IMG/VR virus record: IMGVR_UViG_3300049893_002799
Location: 17,273-81,272 of that record
Length of the DNA: 64,000 bases
Strand: one strand, 5' to 3'
From: a virus
The translations under genes and the position numbers were made by a program. How positions within the stretch are numbered: position 1 is the first letter of the stretch; the number at the start of each line of letters is the position of its first letter. Positions 2,361 to 64,000 of this stretch are shown one piece after another. The notes beneath the pieces are model-generated. The model ran no database searches. It was given only the letters and a program-made list of their open reading frames with translations, and was not told the origin of the DNA.

Positions 2361-2436
2361 TGGTGCTCCCGACGGGACTCGAACCCGCATCTCTGACTTT
2401 TAGAGGGTCGTGTTTTAGCCATTAAACTACGGGAGC
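2361..2436 (-). tRNA. tRNA with anticodon CUA (amber suppressor type), encoded CCA
   Basis: 76 nt: GCTCCCG TA GTTT AATGGCTA AAAC A CGACC CTCTAAA AGTCA GAGAT GCGGG TTCGAGT CCCGT CGGGAGC A CCA; perfect acceptor stem, canonical D-loop GG and TTCGA; anticodon stem has two C.A mismatches. Confidence 0.85.
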
Positions 2437-16666: not shown

Positions 16667-18280
16667 TCAACTATCCGATATCTTTGTGCCCTGAAACCAT
16701 GTATAGTGTTTTAAACCATGTATTGTAAAGGTCCCTGCAGAAGAGTTTGAATAACCGACTCCTACCTTGGTCCCTGCTGTCAAATACATTAGAACAGAAA
16801 CGTATATAGAAAAATCATCAGCCACACCTTTAGTATTCATGAAATAATGAGTGCCATATATTTCACCTGTATTATGGTTTCTAATATTTAAGGAACTATT
16901 AGAACCTGCTGCCATATTAACTAGCATATTTGTAGAAAATAACCAAGTACCAGTTGATGGTATTGTATACCCATTTGCAGAAAATCCACCCACATTATCA
17001 AAGGCAAAGCTACTTCCAAGTCCAAAGTCTACTGTTTGGGTTACACCAGCTCCCGTATAGGATCCGTTAACAGCATTTTTATCGACTCTAAAAGATGGCT
17101 TATCAACCAAAACCTGCTCACCCTGAAACATCTTACCGGATCTCTTGAACACCAAACTGGTATTAGAACTAAAACTACCGGGTACGAGCATGACTTGGGC
17201 GATATTAAAAGTAGTAGCAGATGTTGAACCCCAGTTTACTTGACTTGACGAACCAAGTGCTACAGCAGGACCGCCGGTTGTGGTCCATGCTCCAGGAGAT
17301 ATGGTGCGATTCGATCCAGCTGCTAGTATGAAAGAAATATCCAAACCTGTACCACTATCTAATAACCAGGTTCCAGAATTATCAGTAACGAAATCTATCG
17401 TTTTCTTTTCCCACGTGTTTGCTGCATTTATCGTGTAGTTGATAGCCATCGCGCGAGCATAATTGCTATTTCCTAGAGCAACTGAATACGTACCAGTAGT
17501 AGTAGATTTAACCCAAAACTGCAGTCTAACAGTCTGTGCATTGTGTATGGCCTGATATTCATATCCATCAACACGGTACGTGAGATATAGGTAGTCGTTC
17601 ACACCCGGAATAATCGCAGAGCCGGGTTTACTGATCGACATGCTGTATTGGCTGTTGAAACCAGACTGTGCAAAAGTTGGAACAGACGTGTCTCTGCTTA
17701 AAGTGAGTAAACTAGCGTATGCTCCGCTGAACCAAGTACGAAACTTGTCGGCGAGATAAACAGAACCTGTTGGGTTTACAGAAGATGTCCCGCGCTGCCA
17801 GTAGTCGAAGTTCCCGTTGATGATCAGGTTAGGGTAGTCATTGCCGAGCACGACACCCGTGATAGGCTGCGTAAAAATATTAGCGTTGATGCTGTCGATA
17901 CCTGGCTCAGTTGGGTTGATGCCTGTAGCAAAGTCTATGCTCGTGCTACCCTGAAGCGTCGTGAAAATACCGATAGGTTTGTATGATGTAAAACCAGTGG
18001 GTCCAGTAGAGATACCTGCTAAGCTTGCTACAAGCGCAAGATTTCCAGCAGATACTACCGCGTACACGTAGTAGGTTGAGTTAGCAGCGATCGAGCCGGT
18101 ATCGATGCCGTTGGCACCCGAAGCTGCGGTGCTCAGCGTGATTGTTGCGGAAGGAACGTACTGCTGGCCGCCAACGGTGACGCAGACCGGTTTCCCTGCA
18201 TTAGTTGCTGCTAGAGTAATACTAGTAGTACTAGCTTTCACTATATTTGGTATGTTGTCTGGTCTTAGTACCTGTCCCAT
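16667..18280 (-). CDS. tail fibre protein (NLIINGNFDYWQR domain + C1q-like C-terminus)
   Basis: GIDTGSIAANSTYYVYAV, NLIINGNFDYWQR; paralog of 13652-14839. Confidence 0.72.
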   Translation of the reverse strand: MGQVLRPDNIPNIVKASTTSITLAATNAGKPVCVTVGGQQYVPSATITLSTAASGANGIDTGSIAANSTYYVYAVVSAGNLALVASLAGISTGPTGFTSYKPIGIFTTLQGSTSIDFATGINPTEPGIDSINANIFTQPITGVVLGNDYPNLIINGNFDYWQRGTSSVNPTGSVYLADKFRTWFSGAYASLLTLSRDTSVPTFAQSGFNSQYSMSISKPGSAIIPGVNDYLYLTYRVDGYEYQAIHNAQTVRLQFWVKSTTTGTYSVALGNSNYARAMAINYTINAANTWEKKTIDFVTDNSGTWLLDSGTGLDISFILAAGSNRTISPGAWTTTGGPAVALGSSSQVNWGSTSATTFNIAQVMLVPGSFSSNTSLVFKRSGKMFQGEQVLVDKPSFRVDKNAVNGSYTGAGVTQTVDFGLGSSFAFDNVGGFSANGYTIPSTGTWLFSTNMLVNMAAGSNSSLNIRNHNTGEIYGTHYFMNTKGVADDFSIYVSVLMYLTAGTKVGVGYSNSSAGTFTIHGLKHYTWFQGTKISDS

Positions 18281-59134: not shown

Positions 59135-59359
59135 ATGAATTCGGCGAAAGCGAACAAGAAGCGAAGAAGAAGGAAGAAGCTGCAGCAAGCGCGTCGAGTA
59201 AAGGGCATAGTGAAAACTGATACGGACCGCCATGTACGCGACAACCTTGCTTATGTGGTGTGCAAGCTACTAGGTATCACTGACTCCAAGCCCTATTCCT
59301 ACAGTGTGCGGTACGAGTATGACCCCAATGCCCTTTGTTCACATCAGAGGCCCGCATGA
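59135..59359 (+). CDS. microprotein, LLxxLGV-like family
   Basis: GGAG SD; YVVCKLLGI; ATGA-coupled to the next gene. Confidence 0.55.
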   Translation: MNSAKANKKRRRRKKLQQARRVKGIVKTDTDRHVRDNLAYVVCKLLGITDSKPYSYSVRYEYDPNALCSHQRPA

Positions 59360-59520
59360 GAAATCCCCACTACTTTGCTGCAGCATTGTCTGATTTTCTC
59401 GATGTTGTGTGCAATCTATTAGATATAGACCCAATTGACGACTATGTGATTCTCAATCTAACGATAAAGCATGCGGTCAAAAAGGGGCCCCCTGATGCCC
59501 TAACTAGCGATAACTTATGA
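59356..59520 (+). CDS. microprotein, LLxxLGV-like family
   Basis: ATGA overlaps at both ends; DVVCNLLDI. Confidence 0.55.
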   Translation: MRNPHYFAAALSDFLDVVCNLLDIDPIDDYVILNLTIKHAVKKGPPDALTSDNL

Positions 59521-59663
59521 CGACTTTCAGAACTCTACCAGTGGGTGACCGAAGACGTCTCCGCGACATGGCATTTCTGCTGTATAGACTCGGCGTAATT
59601 GTTGGTGATGATGGCATCATTAACGTTTTTTCAGAAATCTACCGTATGACAGTGGAGCAGTAG
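59517..59663 (+). CDS. microprotein (48 aa, absent from ORF track), LLYRLGV family
   Basis: MTTFRTLPVGDRRRLRDMAFLLYRLGVIVGDDGIINVFSEIYRMTVEQ-TAG; ATGA coupling. Confidence 0.6.
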   Translation: MTTFRTLPVGDRRRLRDMAFLLYRLGVIVGDDGIINVFSEIYRMTVEQ

Positions 59664-59882
59664 GTGATCATCGACAAAGAGTTTGTTGCGGCCTCGCAGC
59701 ACGTCATGAGCGACATGGCTAATATCCTGTACCTAATCCACAAGCTAGGGGTGTACAACACCGTGCACGAGGTGTCCGGCAAATCCGCCTTCATAAAATA
59801 CTATGGCTTAGATCCCATTATTAGACAGGGTTTAACTGCCGCCATCGACGAGTACGTTATGTTTGTTCACTCGTCTCGCTGA
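59664..59882 (+). CDS. microprotein, LLxxLGV-like family
   Basis: GGAG SD with GTG start; ILYLIHKLGV. Confidence 0.6.
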   Translation: MIIDKEFVAASQHVMSDMANILYLIHKLGVYNTVHEVSGKSAFIKYYGLDPIIRQGLTAAIDEYVMFVHSSR

Positions 59883-60040
59883 TTCGTGTCCACATCCACT
59901 TCGCTAGCGTAACACTTGTACAGACCTATGAAGCCGTAGAGCGAGACAGTGGCACCCTTCCGCGGTGATACCCCCAACCTATACAGCAGGTCCACCACAT
60001 CTTCCACATCTATGTAGGGGCTCTTCTTTTGCTCGTTCAT
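59867..60040 (-). CDS. microprotein (57 aa, absent from ORF track), LLYRLGV family
   Basis: MNEQKKSPYIDVEDVVDLLYRLGVSPRKG...; ATGA coupling. Confidence 0.6.
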   Translation of the reverse strand: MNEQKKSPYIDVEDVVDLLYRLGVSPRKGATVSLYGFIGLYKCYASEVDVDTNQRDE

Positions 60041-60219
60041 ATCGGCACTATCTTGCGCGTGGCCTCGTCGCGCACCTGGGTGCCGATGACATCGAGCTGG
60101 CAGAGGAGCCTTATTAGTAAAGTGAGGCCAACGCGACCTTTAAGCTCGTGGAAGGCCCCGCTGATCATTGTAGTGCCGCTGGTGGTCGTTGGCGGATGAA
60201 GTGGCCAGGTGCGGTTCAT
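60037..60219 (-). CDS. microprotein, LLxxLDV family
   Basis: ATG 60219 overlaps the upstream TGA; LIRLLCQLDVI. Confidence 0.55.
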   Translation of the reverse strand: MNRTWPLHPPTTTSGTTMISGAFHELKGRVGLTLLIRLLCQLDVIGTQVRDEATRKIVPI

Positions 60220-60443
60220 GTTATGCTCGTGGGCTTGGGGTTGATGGGGACGTCTAGGCGATAGAGGAGGCGAATCATGTTTATCATGGGGACGGCGGCG
60301 TTTTCGTACTTCTGATAGAGCACGTAGTCGCATGTGTTAAGGAAGCGTGCTATGGTGGGGTCGCTGGACATCATGTAGTTGTATGAGCCGTAGTGTGGCA
60401 GCGAGAAGGTTTGTCCGTTGAAGGTGACCGTGTAATCTGACAT
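60216..60443 (-). CDS. microprotein, LLYRLDV family
   Basis: MIRLLYRLDVP; TATAAT at 60485-60490 upstream. Confidence 0.6.
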   Translation of the reverse strand: MSDYTVTFNGQTFSLPHYGSYNYMMSSDPTIARFLNTCDYVLYQKYENAAVPMINMIRLLYRLDVPINPKPTSIT

Positions 60444-60620: not shown

Positions 60621-60874
60621 AACCGGATCGAGGGGTTCCCTTGACCGTTCAAGGTAGTGGGTAGTAAGGGCCCACCGAATCGAGGGAGAAAGTTGGTGAT
60701 AGATAGAGAGTGTATGTGTAAAAACCGACTCGATAGTTGATTGTTAATGAGAATGAGTGAGTGAGTGTTAACAACCGATGCGAGGTGATTATGTTAGAAG
60801 TTGTGATGATATGTGTGATCTGTTTGATTGCAGTGTTTGCTTGTTTAGGTCTTGCTTATACTTAACCGATGCGA
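60621..60874 (+). repeat. cluster of five AACCGAnnCGA-type motifs, first four ~50 bp apart
   Basis: Copies start at 60621, 60673, 60723, 60773 and 60864. Confidence 0.75.
60791..60865 (+). CDS. 24-aa single-TM microprotein
   Basis: GAGGTG SD; MLEVVMICVICLIAVFACLGLAYT. Confidence 0.5.
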   Translation: MLEVVMICVICLIAVFACLGLAYT

Positions 60875-60905
60875 TCTTAATACAACAACGTTTTAGGAGG
60901 AACTT

Positions 60906-61379
60906 ATGAAACAGAACGACGCAGTGTTTGGTGCAGTGTGTGCAGTGTTAGGTAATGACAAGTTCGAGCAAGCGGTTGAACTCACGAAAGAGCAGCGCGA
61001 CACAGTTGTGAGCATCGTGGTCGACGGCATCGTGAACGGAACGGTTGACTTCTCAGCCGAAGCGAAAGCTAAGTACGACACTCCTGCTAAGGTGAAGAGC
61101 TACACTACCGGAATGGTGAGCAACCACCTGCGCAAGGACAAGAGGCTGAACGGTGGCATCAAGTACGAGATACAGAAACCCGGATCGAGAGCTGGCCAAG
61201 GTGATGATCAGCTGAAAGCTATGCGAGCCTTGCGGTCCAAGCTCTCCGACCCTGAACAGATCGCTCTCGTCGACGCTGAGATCGCGGCACGAACCGAGGC
61301 GATACGAGCTGCGAAGGTTAAGGCTGTCGAGATCAACATCTCCTCGATACCTGAACACCTCCGCCACCTGGTTAAGTAG
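60906..61379 (+). CDS. hypothetical early protein, paralog A
   Basis: AGGAGG SD; LRKDKRLNGG, PGSRAGQGD, PEHLRHLVK shared with 62675-63172. Confidence 0.85.
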   Translation: MKQNDAVFGAVCAVLGNDKFEQAVELTKEQRDTVVSIVVDGIVNGTVDFSAEAKAKYDTPAKVKSYTTGMVSNHLRKDKRLNGGIKYEIQKPGSRAGQGDDQLKAMRALRSKLSDPEQIALVDAEIAARTEAIRAAKVKAVEINISSIPEHLRHLVK

Positions 61380-61433
61380 GACGAAACGGGACATGAAGTC
61401 CCGTCCGACCGTGATGCGGTCGCTGATGAGTCC
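61379..61433 (+). ncRNA. hammerhead ribozyme, type II
   Basis: GGAC GAAA CGGGAC ATGAA GTCCCG TC^ CGACCG TGATG CGGTCG CTGATGA GTCC: complete core (CUGAUGA, GAAA, GUC) with three fully paired stems; predicted cleavage after C61405. Confidence 0.9.
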
Positions 61434-61449
61434 AACAACGGAGGAACTT

Positions 61450-61686
61450 ATGAAGAGCATTAAGTTATTAGCTTTGTTACTCGCCGTATCGACCATGAGC
61501 ACAGCATGTACCTTCGAGAACGAGCACGGTAAGTGTATCGGGGTCATCGATGCGCAGCCAGAACCTGGGGTTCAGTATGAATACGACATGTCTAACTTAA
61601 TAGTATCCGCCATCTTCTTCGAGATGATATTTCCTCCCATCGTATGGGGACTAGCCGCAGCGAAGTGCCCTGTATCTAAGAAGTGA
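61450..61686 (+). CDS. small lipoprotein with C-terminal hydrophobic segment
   Basis: GGAGG SD; signal MKSIKLLALLLAVSTMSTA-C; hydrophobic LIVSAIFFEMIFPPIVWGL. Confidence 0.7.
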   Translation: MKSIKLLALLLAVSTMSTACTFENEHGKCIGVIDAQPEPGVQYEYDMSNLIVSAIFFEMIFPPIVWGLAAAKCPVSKK

Positions 61687-61793
61687 GAGACAAGCAAGTA
61701 GGCCGCAAGGCCTACTGACACTGCTACGCCTAGGGAGAGTATGGGCTGTGAACCGATCCGAGTGATAGTTGTTAATAACAAGGAGGAAACAGC

Positions 61794-62030
61794 ATGCCAG
61801 CAGATATACTTCATGTAAGCCTTGACTCCTATGTCATCACCAAGGCATTCGAGCTAGCCGAAGAGAAAGCCCGAGCGATATGCAGTGAGTGCGATGCTTC
61901 CGACTTCTACCTAGAAGTATCGCTCGTCACAGCTGAGCTACAGACCAAGAGCTTTGGCGAACTGAGGCGATGGATATTCACCTTCACCTACTCAACCGAA
62001 GGGACTTACGATAAGGAGGCAGACGTATGA
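61794..62030 (+). CDS. hypothetical protein
   Basis: AAGGAGG SD; AACCGATCCGA upstream. Confidence 0.7.
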   Translation: MPADILHVSLDSYVITKAFELAEEKARAICSECDASDFYLEVSLVTAELQTKSFGELRRWIFTFTYSTEGTYDKEADV

Positions 62031-62526: not shown

Positions 62527-62674
62527 GTGCTTGGGCCACCTGGCCCAACTGACACTGCTACGCCGGACCGAGTGGCTGCGCATGTGAACCGATCCGAGTT
62601 ATATATATGAATGATGATGAAGTGGTAAGTTGAAACCGACCCGAGTTTATAACAACAACGTTTTAGGAGGATTT

Positions 62675-63172
62675 ATGAGCAAGATCAGTCAGAAAGAGTG
62701 CGTGTTCGCAGCTGTTACCGCTCTACTTGAAGAGCAAGGTCGCAAGCATGAGCTCGACAGCAAGCAGCCCATCACCCTGAGCAAGACCGACCGAGCTACA
62801 GTCGTGAGCATGGTTGTTGCTGCCCGAAGCGAGATGCAGCTGAGTGCTGAAGCTGATGCTAAGTTTGATACCGAGCCCAAGTTCAAGGACTATGTAGTCG
62901 GACTTGTGAACAACTGGCTCCGCAAGGATACTCGGCTCAACGGTGGGTCTAAGTACATCACCAAGAACCCTGGTAGCCGAGCTGGCCAAGGCGACGACAT
63001 CATGAAGTCGCTGAAAGCACTGCGAACCACTGTCGCTGACAAGCCTGAGCAAGCTGCACTGGTCGATGCCGAGATCGAGAAGCGAGCTGCTGAGATCCAA
63101 GCTACTAAGGTTAAGCCGACAACCATCAACATCGATGCTCTGCCCGAGCATCTCCGCCACCTAGTCAAGTAA
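62675..63172 (+). CDS. hypothetical early protein, paralog B
   Basis: Shares a 20-nt leader and protein motifs with 60906-61379. Confidence 0.85.
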   Translation: MSKISQKECVFAAVTALLEEQGRKHELDSKQPITLSKTDRATVVSMVVAARSEMQLSAEADAKFDTEPKFKDYVVGLVNNWLRKDTRLNGGSKYITKNPGSRAGQGDDIMKSLKALRTTVADKPEQAALVDAEIEKRAAEIQATKVKPTTINIDALPEHLRHLVK

Positions 63173-63203: not shown

Positions 63204-63382
63204 TCCACACCCCTTGATATCACTGACAAATCCAAACTTCCACTGTTCTTACCTAGAACTGTGTAAGCGCATAAAATCACAGAGTTTTAATTCGGTTTCT
63301 AGCAAAACGCTCGGCTGGGGCTCTAACCGGCCTACGCAGCTGACACTGCTACGCCGGTATGAGAGAAAGAGTGTGTACACGC

Positions 63383-63763: not shown

Positions 63764-64000
63764 AAACCCACCTCTTCTGTATAGGTATATGATACCACAC
63801 TCCATTACCGACACTGCTACGCCGACCCAGCCGCCCCTACCGATACGATATAAGTCCAGTACAAGCGTGTAAACCCCAGCATACAAGGAATATCCTATGG
63901 AACCGAAGTATACCGACAAGTCTTACGTCTACGTTATTCTCCTAAACCGAGTATCCCGAGTATGGGTAGATCACCAGTCCATCATTGACATCCTAAAGGC

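Follow-up and report, generated by a model that had tools for sequence, protein, structure and literature searches.

A type II hammerhead ribozyme abutting the stop codon of a conserved phage gene, and its proposed role in separating a two-gene message

The analyzed stretch of DNA (hereafter the window) comprises 64,000 nucleotides (nt) of the virus record IMGVR_UViG_3300049893_002799 from IMG/VR, positions 17,273 to 81,272 of that record, and carries on its + strand a complete type II hammerhead ribozyme at positions 61379-61433. This element is almost certainly a genuine hammerhead under selection. It is located between a gene coding for a 157-amino-acid (aa) protein of a phage-only family and a gene coding for a 78-aa protein. 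A probability of roughly 0.7 is assigned to the interpretation that it is a functional ribozyme which cuts co-transcriptionally and separates a two-gene message into hairpin-ended messages.

Anatomy and detection of the ribozyme

All core nucleotides and helices of a type II hammerhead are present at the positions that had been given in the first-pass annotation of the window (Table 1). The elements follow each other in the order stem II strand, GAAA, stem III hairpin, UC, stem I hairpin, CUGAUGA, and stem II strand; stems I and III are capped by loops, and the 5' and 3' ends of the element lie within stem II, which is the type II topology. The conserved hammerhead core, C3-U4-G5-A6-N7-G8-A9 and G12-A13-A14, is complete. 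An A15.1-U16.1 pair (A61386-U61404) is followed at position H17 by a nucleotide other than G (C61405), and the G10.1-C11.1 pair (G61430-C61382) is invariant in 55 members of the ribozyme class described below and in seven orthologues. That three helices surround the core is seen both in the minimum-energy fold, which is the junction, and in the covariation among orthologues. Core, helices, subclass consensus, and orthologous conservation with covariation thus agree in the identification as a type II hammerhead. The previously described placement was confirmed as well: G61379 is at the same time the first base of the ribozyme and the last base of the TAG stop codon of the 157-aa open reading frame (ORF), the gap between this stop and the next ATG (61450) measures 70 nt, and the ribozyme ends 6 nt ahead of the Shine-Dalgarno sequence GGAGG at 61440-61444.

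The minimum-energy and the centroid fold of the 55-nt element are exactly the three-way junction (-24.5 kcal/mol, z = -3.3, equalled by none of 200 shuffled sequences), and the junction persists when a context of 161 nt is folded. A descriptor of our own, which covered all three hammerhead topologies and required the full core, the A-U pair, H17, and stems of at least 3 bp, had 61379-61433 as its sole match when both strands of the complete virus record (81,272 bases) were scanned. The same descriptor found one loose match in 60 dinucleotide-preserving shuffles of the record (approximately 0.02 loose matches per genome) and none with stems of this length. A class-specific covariance model (R1), built from 55 phage hammerheads of the same architecture (alignment A1), scored the element with 70.2 bits (E value 3e-18) as its only match in the window. 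Members of A1 were picked by a descriptor that requires pairing, so their 100% pairing is not independent evidence; the hairpin test with a pattern that leaves pairing free, reported below, is the unbiased version. The ribozyme is present as a single copy in 81 kb of a record that has a CheckV completeness of 48% and resembles related phage genomes of approximately 170 kb.

Table 1. Features of the ribozyme, its surroundings in the window, and the orthologous loci that carry it. Positions are those of the window.
Feature	Position	Strand	Remarks
Type II hammerhead ribozyme, complete, stem II open	61379-61433	+	Recognized by motif, fold, and covariance model
Conserved A directly 5' of stem II	61378	+	Forms the A/A flank of the subclass together with A61434
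Stem II, 5' strand GGAC	61379-61382	+	Ends in C11.1; pairs with 61430-61433
Core G12 A13 A14	61383-61385	+	Invariant in all orthologues
GAAA strand	61383-61386	+	
Stem III hairpin	61386-61404	+	A15.1-U16.1 plus 6 bp CGGGAC/GUCCCG; loop AUGAA
Stem III strands	61387-61392 (CGGGAC), 61398-61403 (GUCCCG)	+	Extended by the pair A61386-U61404
Cleavage triplet GUC	61403-61405	+	
Predicted scission site	between 61405 and 61406	+	C17 = C61405; from the hammerhead rule (3' of N-U-H)
Stem I hairpin	61406-61422	+	CGACCG (61406-61411)/CGGUCG (61417-61422); loop UGAUG
Core C3 U4 G5 A6 U7 G8 A9 (CUGAUGA)	61423-61429	+	Invariant in orthologues
Stem II, 3' strand GUCC	61430-61433	+	Starts with G10.1
CCUCCG within the upstream ORF	61358-61363	+	Predicted by context folds to pair with CGGAGG 61439-61444, enclosing the ribozyme
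Upstream gene P0001, 157 aa, phage-only family	60906-61379	+	TAG stop codon at 61377-61379
Shine-Dalgarno region CGGAGG of the 78-aa gene	61439-61444	+	5-nt spacer to ATG 61450
Downstream gene P0003, 78 aa	61450-61686	+	Signal peptide ending STA|C; C-terminal hydrophobic segment
GCAA-loop hairpin followed by invariant GACACTGCTACGCC element	61697-61730	+	Closes the two-gene unit
AACCGAnnCGA-type motifs	60673-60874 (at about 60673, 60723, 60773, 60864)	+	Tandem, within the 230 nt before the 157-aa gene
tRNA, anticodon CUA (amber-reading)	2361-2436	-	Phage genes otherwise use the standard code
Locus L122			Upstream protein 92% identical to that of the window; ribozyme, then 78-aa signal-peptide protein gene as in the window
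Locus L125			Upstream protein 68% identical; ribozyme, then collagen-like repeat lipoprotein gene
Locus L128			Upstream protein 66% identical; ribozyme identical to that of L132, no ORF after it
Locus L138			Upstream protein 65% identical; ribozyme, then another small gene
Locus L132			Upstream protein 64% identical; ribozyme present
Locus L129			Upstream protein 64% identical; ribozyme, then gene for a Cys-rich protein of 87-91 aa
Locus L131			Upstream protein 61% identical; ribozyme with GUA site (A17), then gene for a Cys-rich protein of 87-91 aa

Orthologous loci and the phage subclass

A profile search of metagenome contigs with the upstream protein family recovered 80 loci, in seven of which R1 detected a hammerhead directly after the orthologous gene and touching its stop codon. 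Alignment of the seven distinct sequences (the window and six others) showed no variation in the core nucleotides, in stem II, or in the A on either side of it. Stem I occurs as CGACCG/CGGUCG, CAACCG/CGGUUG, or UUGCGA/UCGCAA, stem III varies in sequence as well as in length, and the GUA cleavage triplet of L131 is permitted by the hammerhead rule. Eight of the 17 base pairs change on both sides; five of the six stem I pairs covary and compensatory changes are seen in stem III, while stem II never varies. Pairing extends to 99% of the alignment cells, compared with 21-41% when the partners are slid. In addition, near-identical strains from three DNA runs differ by substitutions in both flanking genes, but by none within 61379-61433. 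The conservation and covariation among orthologues and the absence of strain variants from the ribozyme are therefore good evidence of selection on a working ribozyme. L128 shares its stem III with the window and its stem I with L125. All these orthologues came from the profile search; the single-protein locus search yielded one relative only (L001/L202), which has no ribozyme, and a blastn search of 60800-61800 against the GenBank phage collection gave no match.

The remaining orthologues carry a stable hairpin after the stop codon, often together with a U-run, and hairpin plus U-run constitute an intrinsic terminator in L126, L134, L139, L141, and L202. In most of the orthologues without ribozyme the hairpin is followed by a GACACTGCTACGC(C/T) element and then by an AACCGAnnCGA-type motif. 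Plain hairpins are spaced 5-25 nt from the stop codon and the ribozymes lie closer to it. A second copy of the gene in the window itself (paralogue B, 62675-63172) precedes an 8-bp hairpin with a GAAA loop, in accordance with the earlier observation that only a GNRA hairpin is found at the equivalent place. Some of the orthologue hairpins look like what is left of stem II or stem III of a hammerhead. In L146, a free-standing, U-flanked hairpin whose 5' flank still resembles GGACGAAAC matches the stem III hairpin of L125 and L138 (GACTCAYGGATTGAGTC) over 17 nt, and the hairpin stem AAGGACUC/GAGUCCUU of L123 equals the outer GGAC...GAGUCC of the ribozyme in L128. These two genes, one with a hairpin and the other with a ribozyme, are sisters in the maximum-likelihood tree, in which all ribozyme-bearing genes fall into one subclade of 15 and well-supported branches require at least three switches between ribozyme and hairpin. 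Wherever the ribozyme is missing, its core has been lost wholly and no mutated core is retained.

As the downstream neighbour varies and the upstream gene is fixed, the ribozyme is a feature of the conserved gene's 3' end; judging from these comparisons, it is functionally interchangeable there with a 3' hairpin or terminator. The intrinsic terminators and 3' stabilizing hairpins (L202, L126, L134, L139, L141, and paralogue B) occupy the same position after the stop codon in the same gene family, and in both kinds of locus a GC-rich tetraloop hairpin would define or protect the 3' end at that place. A terminator halts RNA polymerase, however, whereas the ribozyme would make a 3' end while transcription continues into the next gene. 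The alternation of ribozyme and hairpin suggests that selection has favoured the making of a 3' end without termination. It amounts to a natural experiment: behind one and the same conserved gene, some lineages have a hammerhead and their sisters a terminator or plain hairpin.

To place the element among other phage hammerheads, viral contigs were searched with a pattern limited to the core (GACGAAAC, spacer, GTC, spacer, CTGATGAGTC), which does not demand pairing and which matched in at least 120 contigs. Both spacers form hairpins in 122 of 135 distinct pattern matches, as opposed to 1 of 2700 with shuffled spacers. The descriptor identified 206 sites in the pattern-matched loci, often several per contig and including pattern-negative neighbours with CUGACGA cores or other stem II sequences. 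The subclass was defined from 193 sites in L002-L121, whose contigs may include related phages (contexts were de-duplicated by identity only). Stem II has 4 bp in 159 of 208 parses with GGAC/GUCC as the dominant sequence, and in alignment A1 the positions G3, G4, C54, and C55 are nearly invariant. The cleavage site is GUC in 192 of the 193 members, and 93 have a stem I hairpin of 17 nt, the loop of which follows the consensus U-N-A-N-G (U at position 1 in 91, A at position 3 in 71, and G at position 5 in 60 of these 93). Stem II is preceded by an A in 161 (83%) and followed by an A in 118 of the 193 members, neither base being part of the search pattern; the A at -1 often doubles as the last base of a UAA or UGA codon or as the middle base of UAG.

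The window element matches the class in features outside the pattern, namely A61378, A61434, the 17-nt stem I hairpin, and the loop UGAUG, and it combines all traits of the subclass: a 4-bp GGAC/GUCC stem II, the A/A flank, a stem I hairpin of 17-18 nt, the U-N-A-N-G loop, and the GUC site. On these sequence features it is assigned to a widespread, apparently pseudoknot-free phage subclass with a 6-bp stem I and a variable, very stable stem III. Two further candidate features of the subclass were rejected. An extension of stem II past 4 bp is not found across the class, where positions +/-2 to +/-7 show no more pairing than shuffled sequences do, and pairing of loop I with the 3' tail as a conserved pseudoknot exceeded the shuffled level only marginally, the excess coming from members with longer loops. 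Inspection by eye revealed no complement of at least 4 nt to the loop UGAUG in the 3' tail AACAACGGAGG of the window element. The conserved U, A, and G of loop I together with the A/A flank suggest a likely tertiary contact of non-Watson-Crick type. R1 also matched in more distant phages at L242:1406-1477, L167 and L211:901-957 (48 and 36 bits). These matches lie upstream, not downstream, of 157-aa-family genes, the one in L242 ending 23 nt before the gene.

Proposed function and alternative explanations

Three observations suggest transcription of the + strand: the coding strand is conserved, the small genes run in the same direction, and + strand motifs recur upstream. There is no AACCGAnnCGA-type motif between the 157-aa and the 78-aa gene, so the latter would be co-transcribed with the former. 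The mechanism that we infer, from synthesis and cleavage of the RNA to protection of its ends and release of the ribosome-binding site (RBS), would proceed as follows. A single promoter would drive a + strand unit from the 157-aa gene through the 78-aa gene. Once the polymerase has passed 61433, the ribozyme would fold and cut between C61405 and C61406. Owing to the type II topology each product would carry a closed hairpin on its new end, and only the 4-bp stem II would join the two halves. The upstream product would terminate in the stop codon, GACGAAA, the stem III hairpin, and a UC that carries a 2',3'-cyclic phosphate; this end, 26 nt past the stop, would resemble the one that a terminator makes. 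On the downstream product, a 5'-OH would sit directly on the stem I hairpin, at a distance of 33 nt from the RBS and 44 nt from the AUG. In mRNA decay of Escherichia coli, 3' exonucleases are held back by a 3' hairpin that is not open to polyadenylation, and RNase E enters poorly at a 5' stem-loop lacking a monophosphate. Two co-promoted genes would in this way become separate messages, both of whose new ends should be protected. In the phage of the window and in L122, parting of the halves would additionally free the RBS from a 6-bp pairing. This masking was rejected as a conserved feature, being seen only in these two and not in the other orthologues, and its relief would be a lineage-specific extra at most. 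Cleavage in vivo is highly probable, and separation or stabilization of the messages is, with somewhat less assurance, the probable selected function. That self-cleavage splits the dicistronic message, as the first-pass annotation had suggested, is also the reading favoured in the literature for phage hammerheads (PMC3088659, PMC6765202) and fits the anatomy.

Several observations weigh against this interpretation. The search with Infernal and the Rfam hammerhead models, which had been proposed earlier as a check, was run, and none of these models reached its gathering score in the window, where only a tRNA was reported; the type II model RF02276 (gathering cut-off 37 bits) had no match at E <= 10 in the whole record, and a permissive Rfam scan of the local 311 nt returned only a partial match of 14.8 bits to the type III model Hammerhead_3. 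The window element also has no evident pseudoknot between loop I and the 3' tail, of the kind needed for fast cleavage in tested type II ribozymes. The only metatranscriptome contig found stems from a relative and covers 61697-61732, off the ribozyme. Stabilization of the ends is deduced from knowledge of E. coli and may not hold for the host of this phage, the AACCGAnnCGA-type motifs are candidate promoters, not validated ones, and the RBS-masking pairing, limited to two close relatives and involving codons for a conserved peptide, may be incidental. The Rfam scores can be accounted for. RF02276 has 66 positions and expects a 2-bp stem II and a long stem I whose loop pairs with the 3' tail (AGCC...). 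Applied at its gathering score to ten comparable viral loci (L002, L007, L009, L014, L016, L029, L039, L044, L065, and L073), it detected 3 of 33 type II sites defined by the descriptor and missed the other 30. Its failure at 61379-61433 therefore reflects the scope of the model and not the candidate, and the sub-threshold score was rejected as evidence against the latter. The Rfam type II model thus misses most members of a very common phage subclass.

The position of the ribozyme ahead of a small gene could also mean that it serves chiefly as a 5' insulator, which would travel with, or have been recruited for, an acquired accessory ("moron") gene, give it a defined 5'-OH leader independent of upstream context, and make the upstream gene a bystander. 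Five of the seven distinct ribozyme loci have an RBS and an ORF 15-20 nt past the ribozyme, and throughout the class most distances from the last ribozyme base to the following start codon are 11-31 nt. For the window and L122, ribozyme and 78-aa gene together have the look of an insert, flanked by the 157-aa gene and the hairpin-GACACTGCTACGCC element, of which the latter directly follows the former in most orthologues, and hammerheads flanking small non-conserved ORFs have been noted in the literature (PMC6155905). However, the ribozyme sequence tracks the upstream gene and not the cargo: the downstream genes of L125, L129/L131, L138, and the window are four unrelated ones, L128 has no ORF behind its ribozyme, and the distance from the element to what lies downstream varies, whereas its 5' edge invariably sits at the upstream stop codon. 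Insulation as the chief function is regarded as unlikely.

Among 177 class members with an upstream ORF of at least 60 codons, 107 have the last base of the stop codon within -3 to +2 of the first base of stem II, with peaks at -1 (32), 0 (32), and -3 (23). Contact with a terminating ribosome is therefore the rule in the subclass, and the upstream stop abuts the ribozyme far more often than simple spacing suggests. A ribosome at such a stop would necessarily overlie stem II and the GAAA strand. It is rather doubtful, though, that this placement is functional, in the sense that the ribosome keeps both of them open and cleavage is licensed only after termination and release. If it is, amber read-through via the tRNA-CUA would either disrupt the ribozyme fold or send ribosomes onto the 3' end made by cleavage, and the ribozyme would be a translation- or suppression-sensing switch, not a constitutive cutter, and evolutionarily interchangeable with intrinsic terminators at this site. 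A translation-coupled switch, in which a terminating or UAG-reading ribosome unfolds stem II and the GAAA strand and cleavage follows ribosome traffic or amber suppression, is quite improbable. It would suit the G shared by TAG and stem II, the phage-encoded tRNA-CUA, the upstream frame that stays open through the whole ribozyme to a TAA at 61461-61463, and the position of the stop codon, which is far tighter than the 5-25 nt of plain hairpins. Yet TAG is not kept among the orthologues (TAA in L128 and L138, TAG then TAA in L125), chance alone gives an open frame of 27 codons in about 1 of 4 cases, and genome compaction predicts the same tight spacing. Moreover, hammerheads usually cleave seconds to minutes after folding, so brief occupancy by a ribosome may not matter. 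Of the translation coupling proposed in the first-pass annotation, the contact between ribosome and ribozyme thus proved general in the subclass, whereas the overlap with TAG is not conserved and compaction explains the spacing.

A chance match or a dead, non-cleaving relic, whose hairpins alone matter as mRNA-stabilizing or terminator-like structures, would agree with the unmet Rfam thresholds, the lack of an evident pseudoknot, and the sister lineages that manage with a plain hairpin at the site, but is very improbable in view of approximately 0.02 loose matches per shuffled genome, of 13 core nucleotides that are invariant at 61-92% protein identity while the stems covary, and of ribozyme-less lineages that lost the core entirely, none of them keeping a mutated one.

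Hammerheads of type II have been known in phages since 2011, when natural examples were found and the motif proved common in bacteria (Perreault et al., 2011; PMC3088659). The same study reported multiple hammerheads flanking prophage genes and showed cleavage in vitro and in E. coli (PMC3088659). Type II hammerheads are common in prophages, and it has been suggested that they process long phage transcripts into messages of single genes (PMC3088659; PMC6765202); reviews still call the role of bacterial and phage hammerheads largely unknown (PMC6765202, PMC6155905). The window element shares with the type II ribozymes of Perreault et al. and RF02276 the core, the circular permutation, the intergenic habitat in phages, and the proposed cutting of transcripts. 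Those ribozymes have a stem II of 1-2 bp and a longer loop I pseudoknotted with the 3' tail, whereas the window element has the 4-bp GGAC/GUCC stem, the A/A flank, and a short U-N-A-N-G loop I, shows no evident pseudoknot, and scores below the cut-off. It is also a single copy in 81 kb, unlike the clustered type II hammerheads. Like the prophage clusters of the Agrobacterium tumefaciens ardA region, a type for which cleavage was shown in vitro and in E. coli (PMC3088659), it lies between co-directional genes and near the next RBS; unlike them, it stands alone, tied to the 3' end of the genes of a conserved family, where it swaps with a terminator-type hairpin in orthologues. In the haloviruses HF1 and HF2 a hammerhead is located 13 nt upstream of the start codon of a helicase gene in an early polycistronic unit, and a mapped 5' end lies at most 3 nt from the cleavage site (PMC3088659). 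The likeness consists in a phage hammerhead just before a start codon; that of HF1/HF2 is a core variant from an archaeal virus (PMC3088659). The kind of element is already known, and what is specific here is a single copy that is fixed to a stop codon, alternates with terminator-type hairpins, and belongs to a very common subclass largely missed by the Rfam model.

Synthetic insulators of the RiboJ type are engineered from type III hammerheads; their self-cleavage strips the upstream context and leaves a 5'-OH and a hairpin before the RBS. In comparison, the natural type II form would additionally furnish the upstream fragment with a 3'-terminal hairpin. The locus leaves knowledge of the ribozyme itself unchanged, but offers matched natural constructs on the role of phage hammerheads.

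Flanking genes and locus context

The upstream 157-aa protein has 133 homologues at E <= 1e-3, among them P0004 with 99% identity. It had no match in Pfam or PHROGs, and its clusters in the protein atlas are 92-100% viral and contain hypothetical proteins only; the label of an early gene, given to it in the first annotation, found no counterpart in this phage-only family. Conserved motifs of the family are RKDxRLNGG, PGSRAGxGD, and a C-terminal PEHLRHLVK. Two to three copies are present per genome in phages of approximately 115-177 kb, several copies being frequent in those of roughly 150-177 kb, and the copies of the window are located at 60906-61379 and 62675-63172.

The product of the downstream gene had been described as a lipoprotein. 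A signal peptide and a weak lipobox (STA|C) are indeed present, and no family match was obtained in Pfam or PHROGs; it is a putative small lipoprotein or membrane protein. An orthologue of the gene is also found in L122. In L125, the gene that follows the ribozyme (L125:1944-2169) codes for a protein with a lipobox (LFVGC) and collagen-like GKDGV(T/A) repeats.

A scan for sigma-70 promoters and terminators around the site gave nothing informative. The AACCGAnnCGA-type motifs upstream of the 157-aa gene are candidate phage promoters for + strand units, and the motif also occurs after the GACACTGCTACGCC element, at 61751 and 62587. A hairpin with an invariant GACACTGCTACGC(C) element was found on the + strand at 61697-61730, 62531-62564, 63341-63355, and 63809-63823, and a count of four copies in the window was reached by none of 100 shuffles. 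The hairpin-GACACTGCTACGC(C) element directly follows the orthologous 157-aa gene in more than 10 related metagenome contigs (loci L126-L145), usually with an ACCGAnnCGA motif and an AT-rich box behind it. Upstream of the locus, the region 59335-60443 contains small ORFs on both strands (59517-59663 on the + strand, 59867-60040 and 60216-60443 on the - strand) that share an LLYRLGV-like motif.

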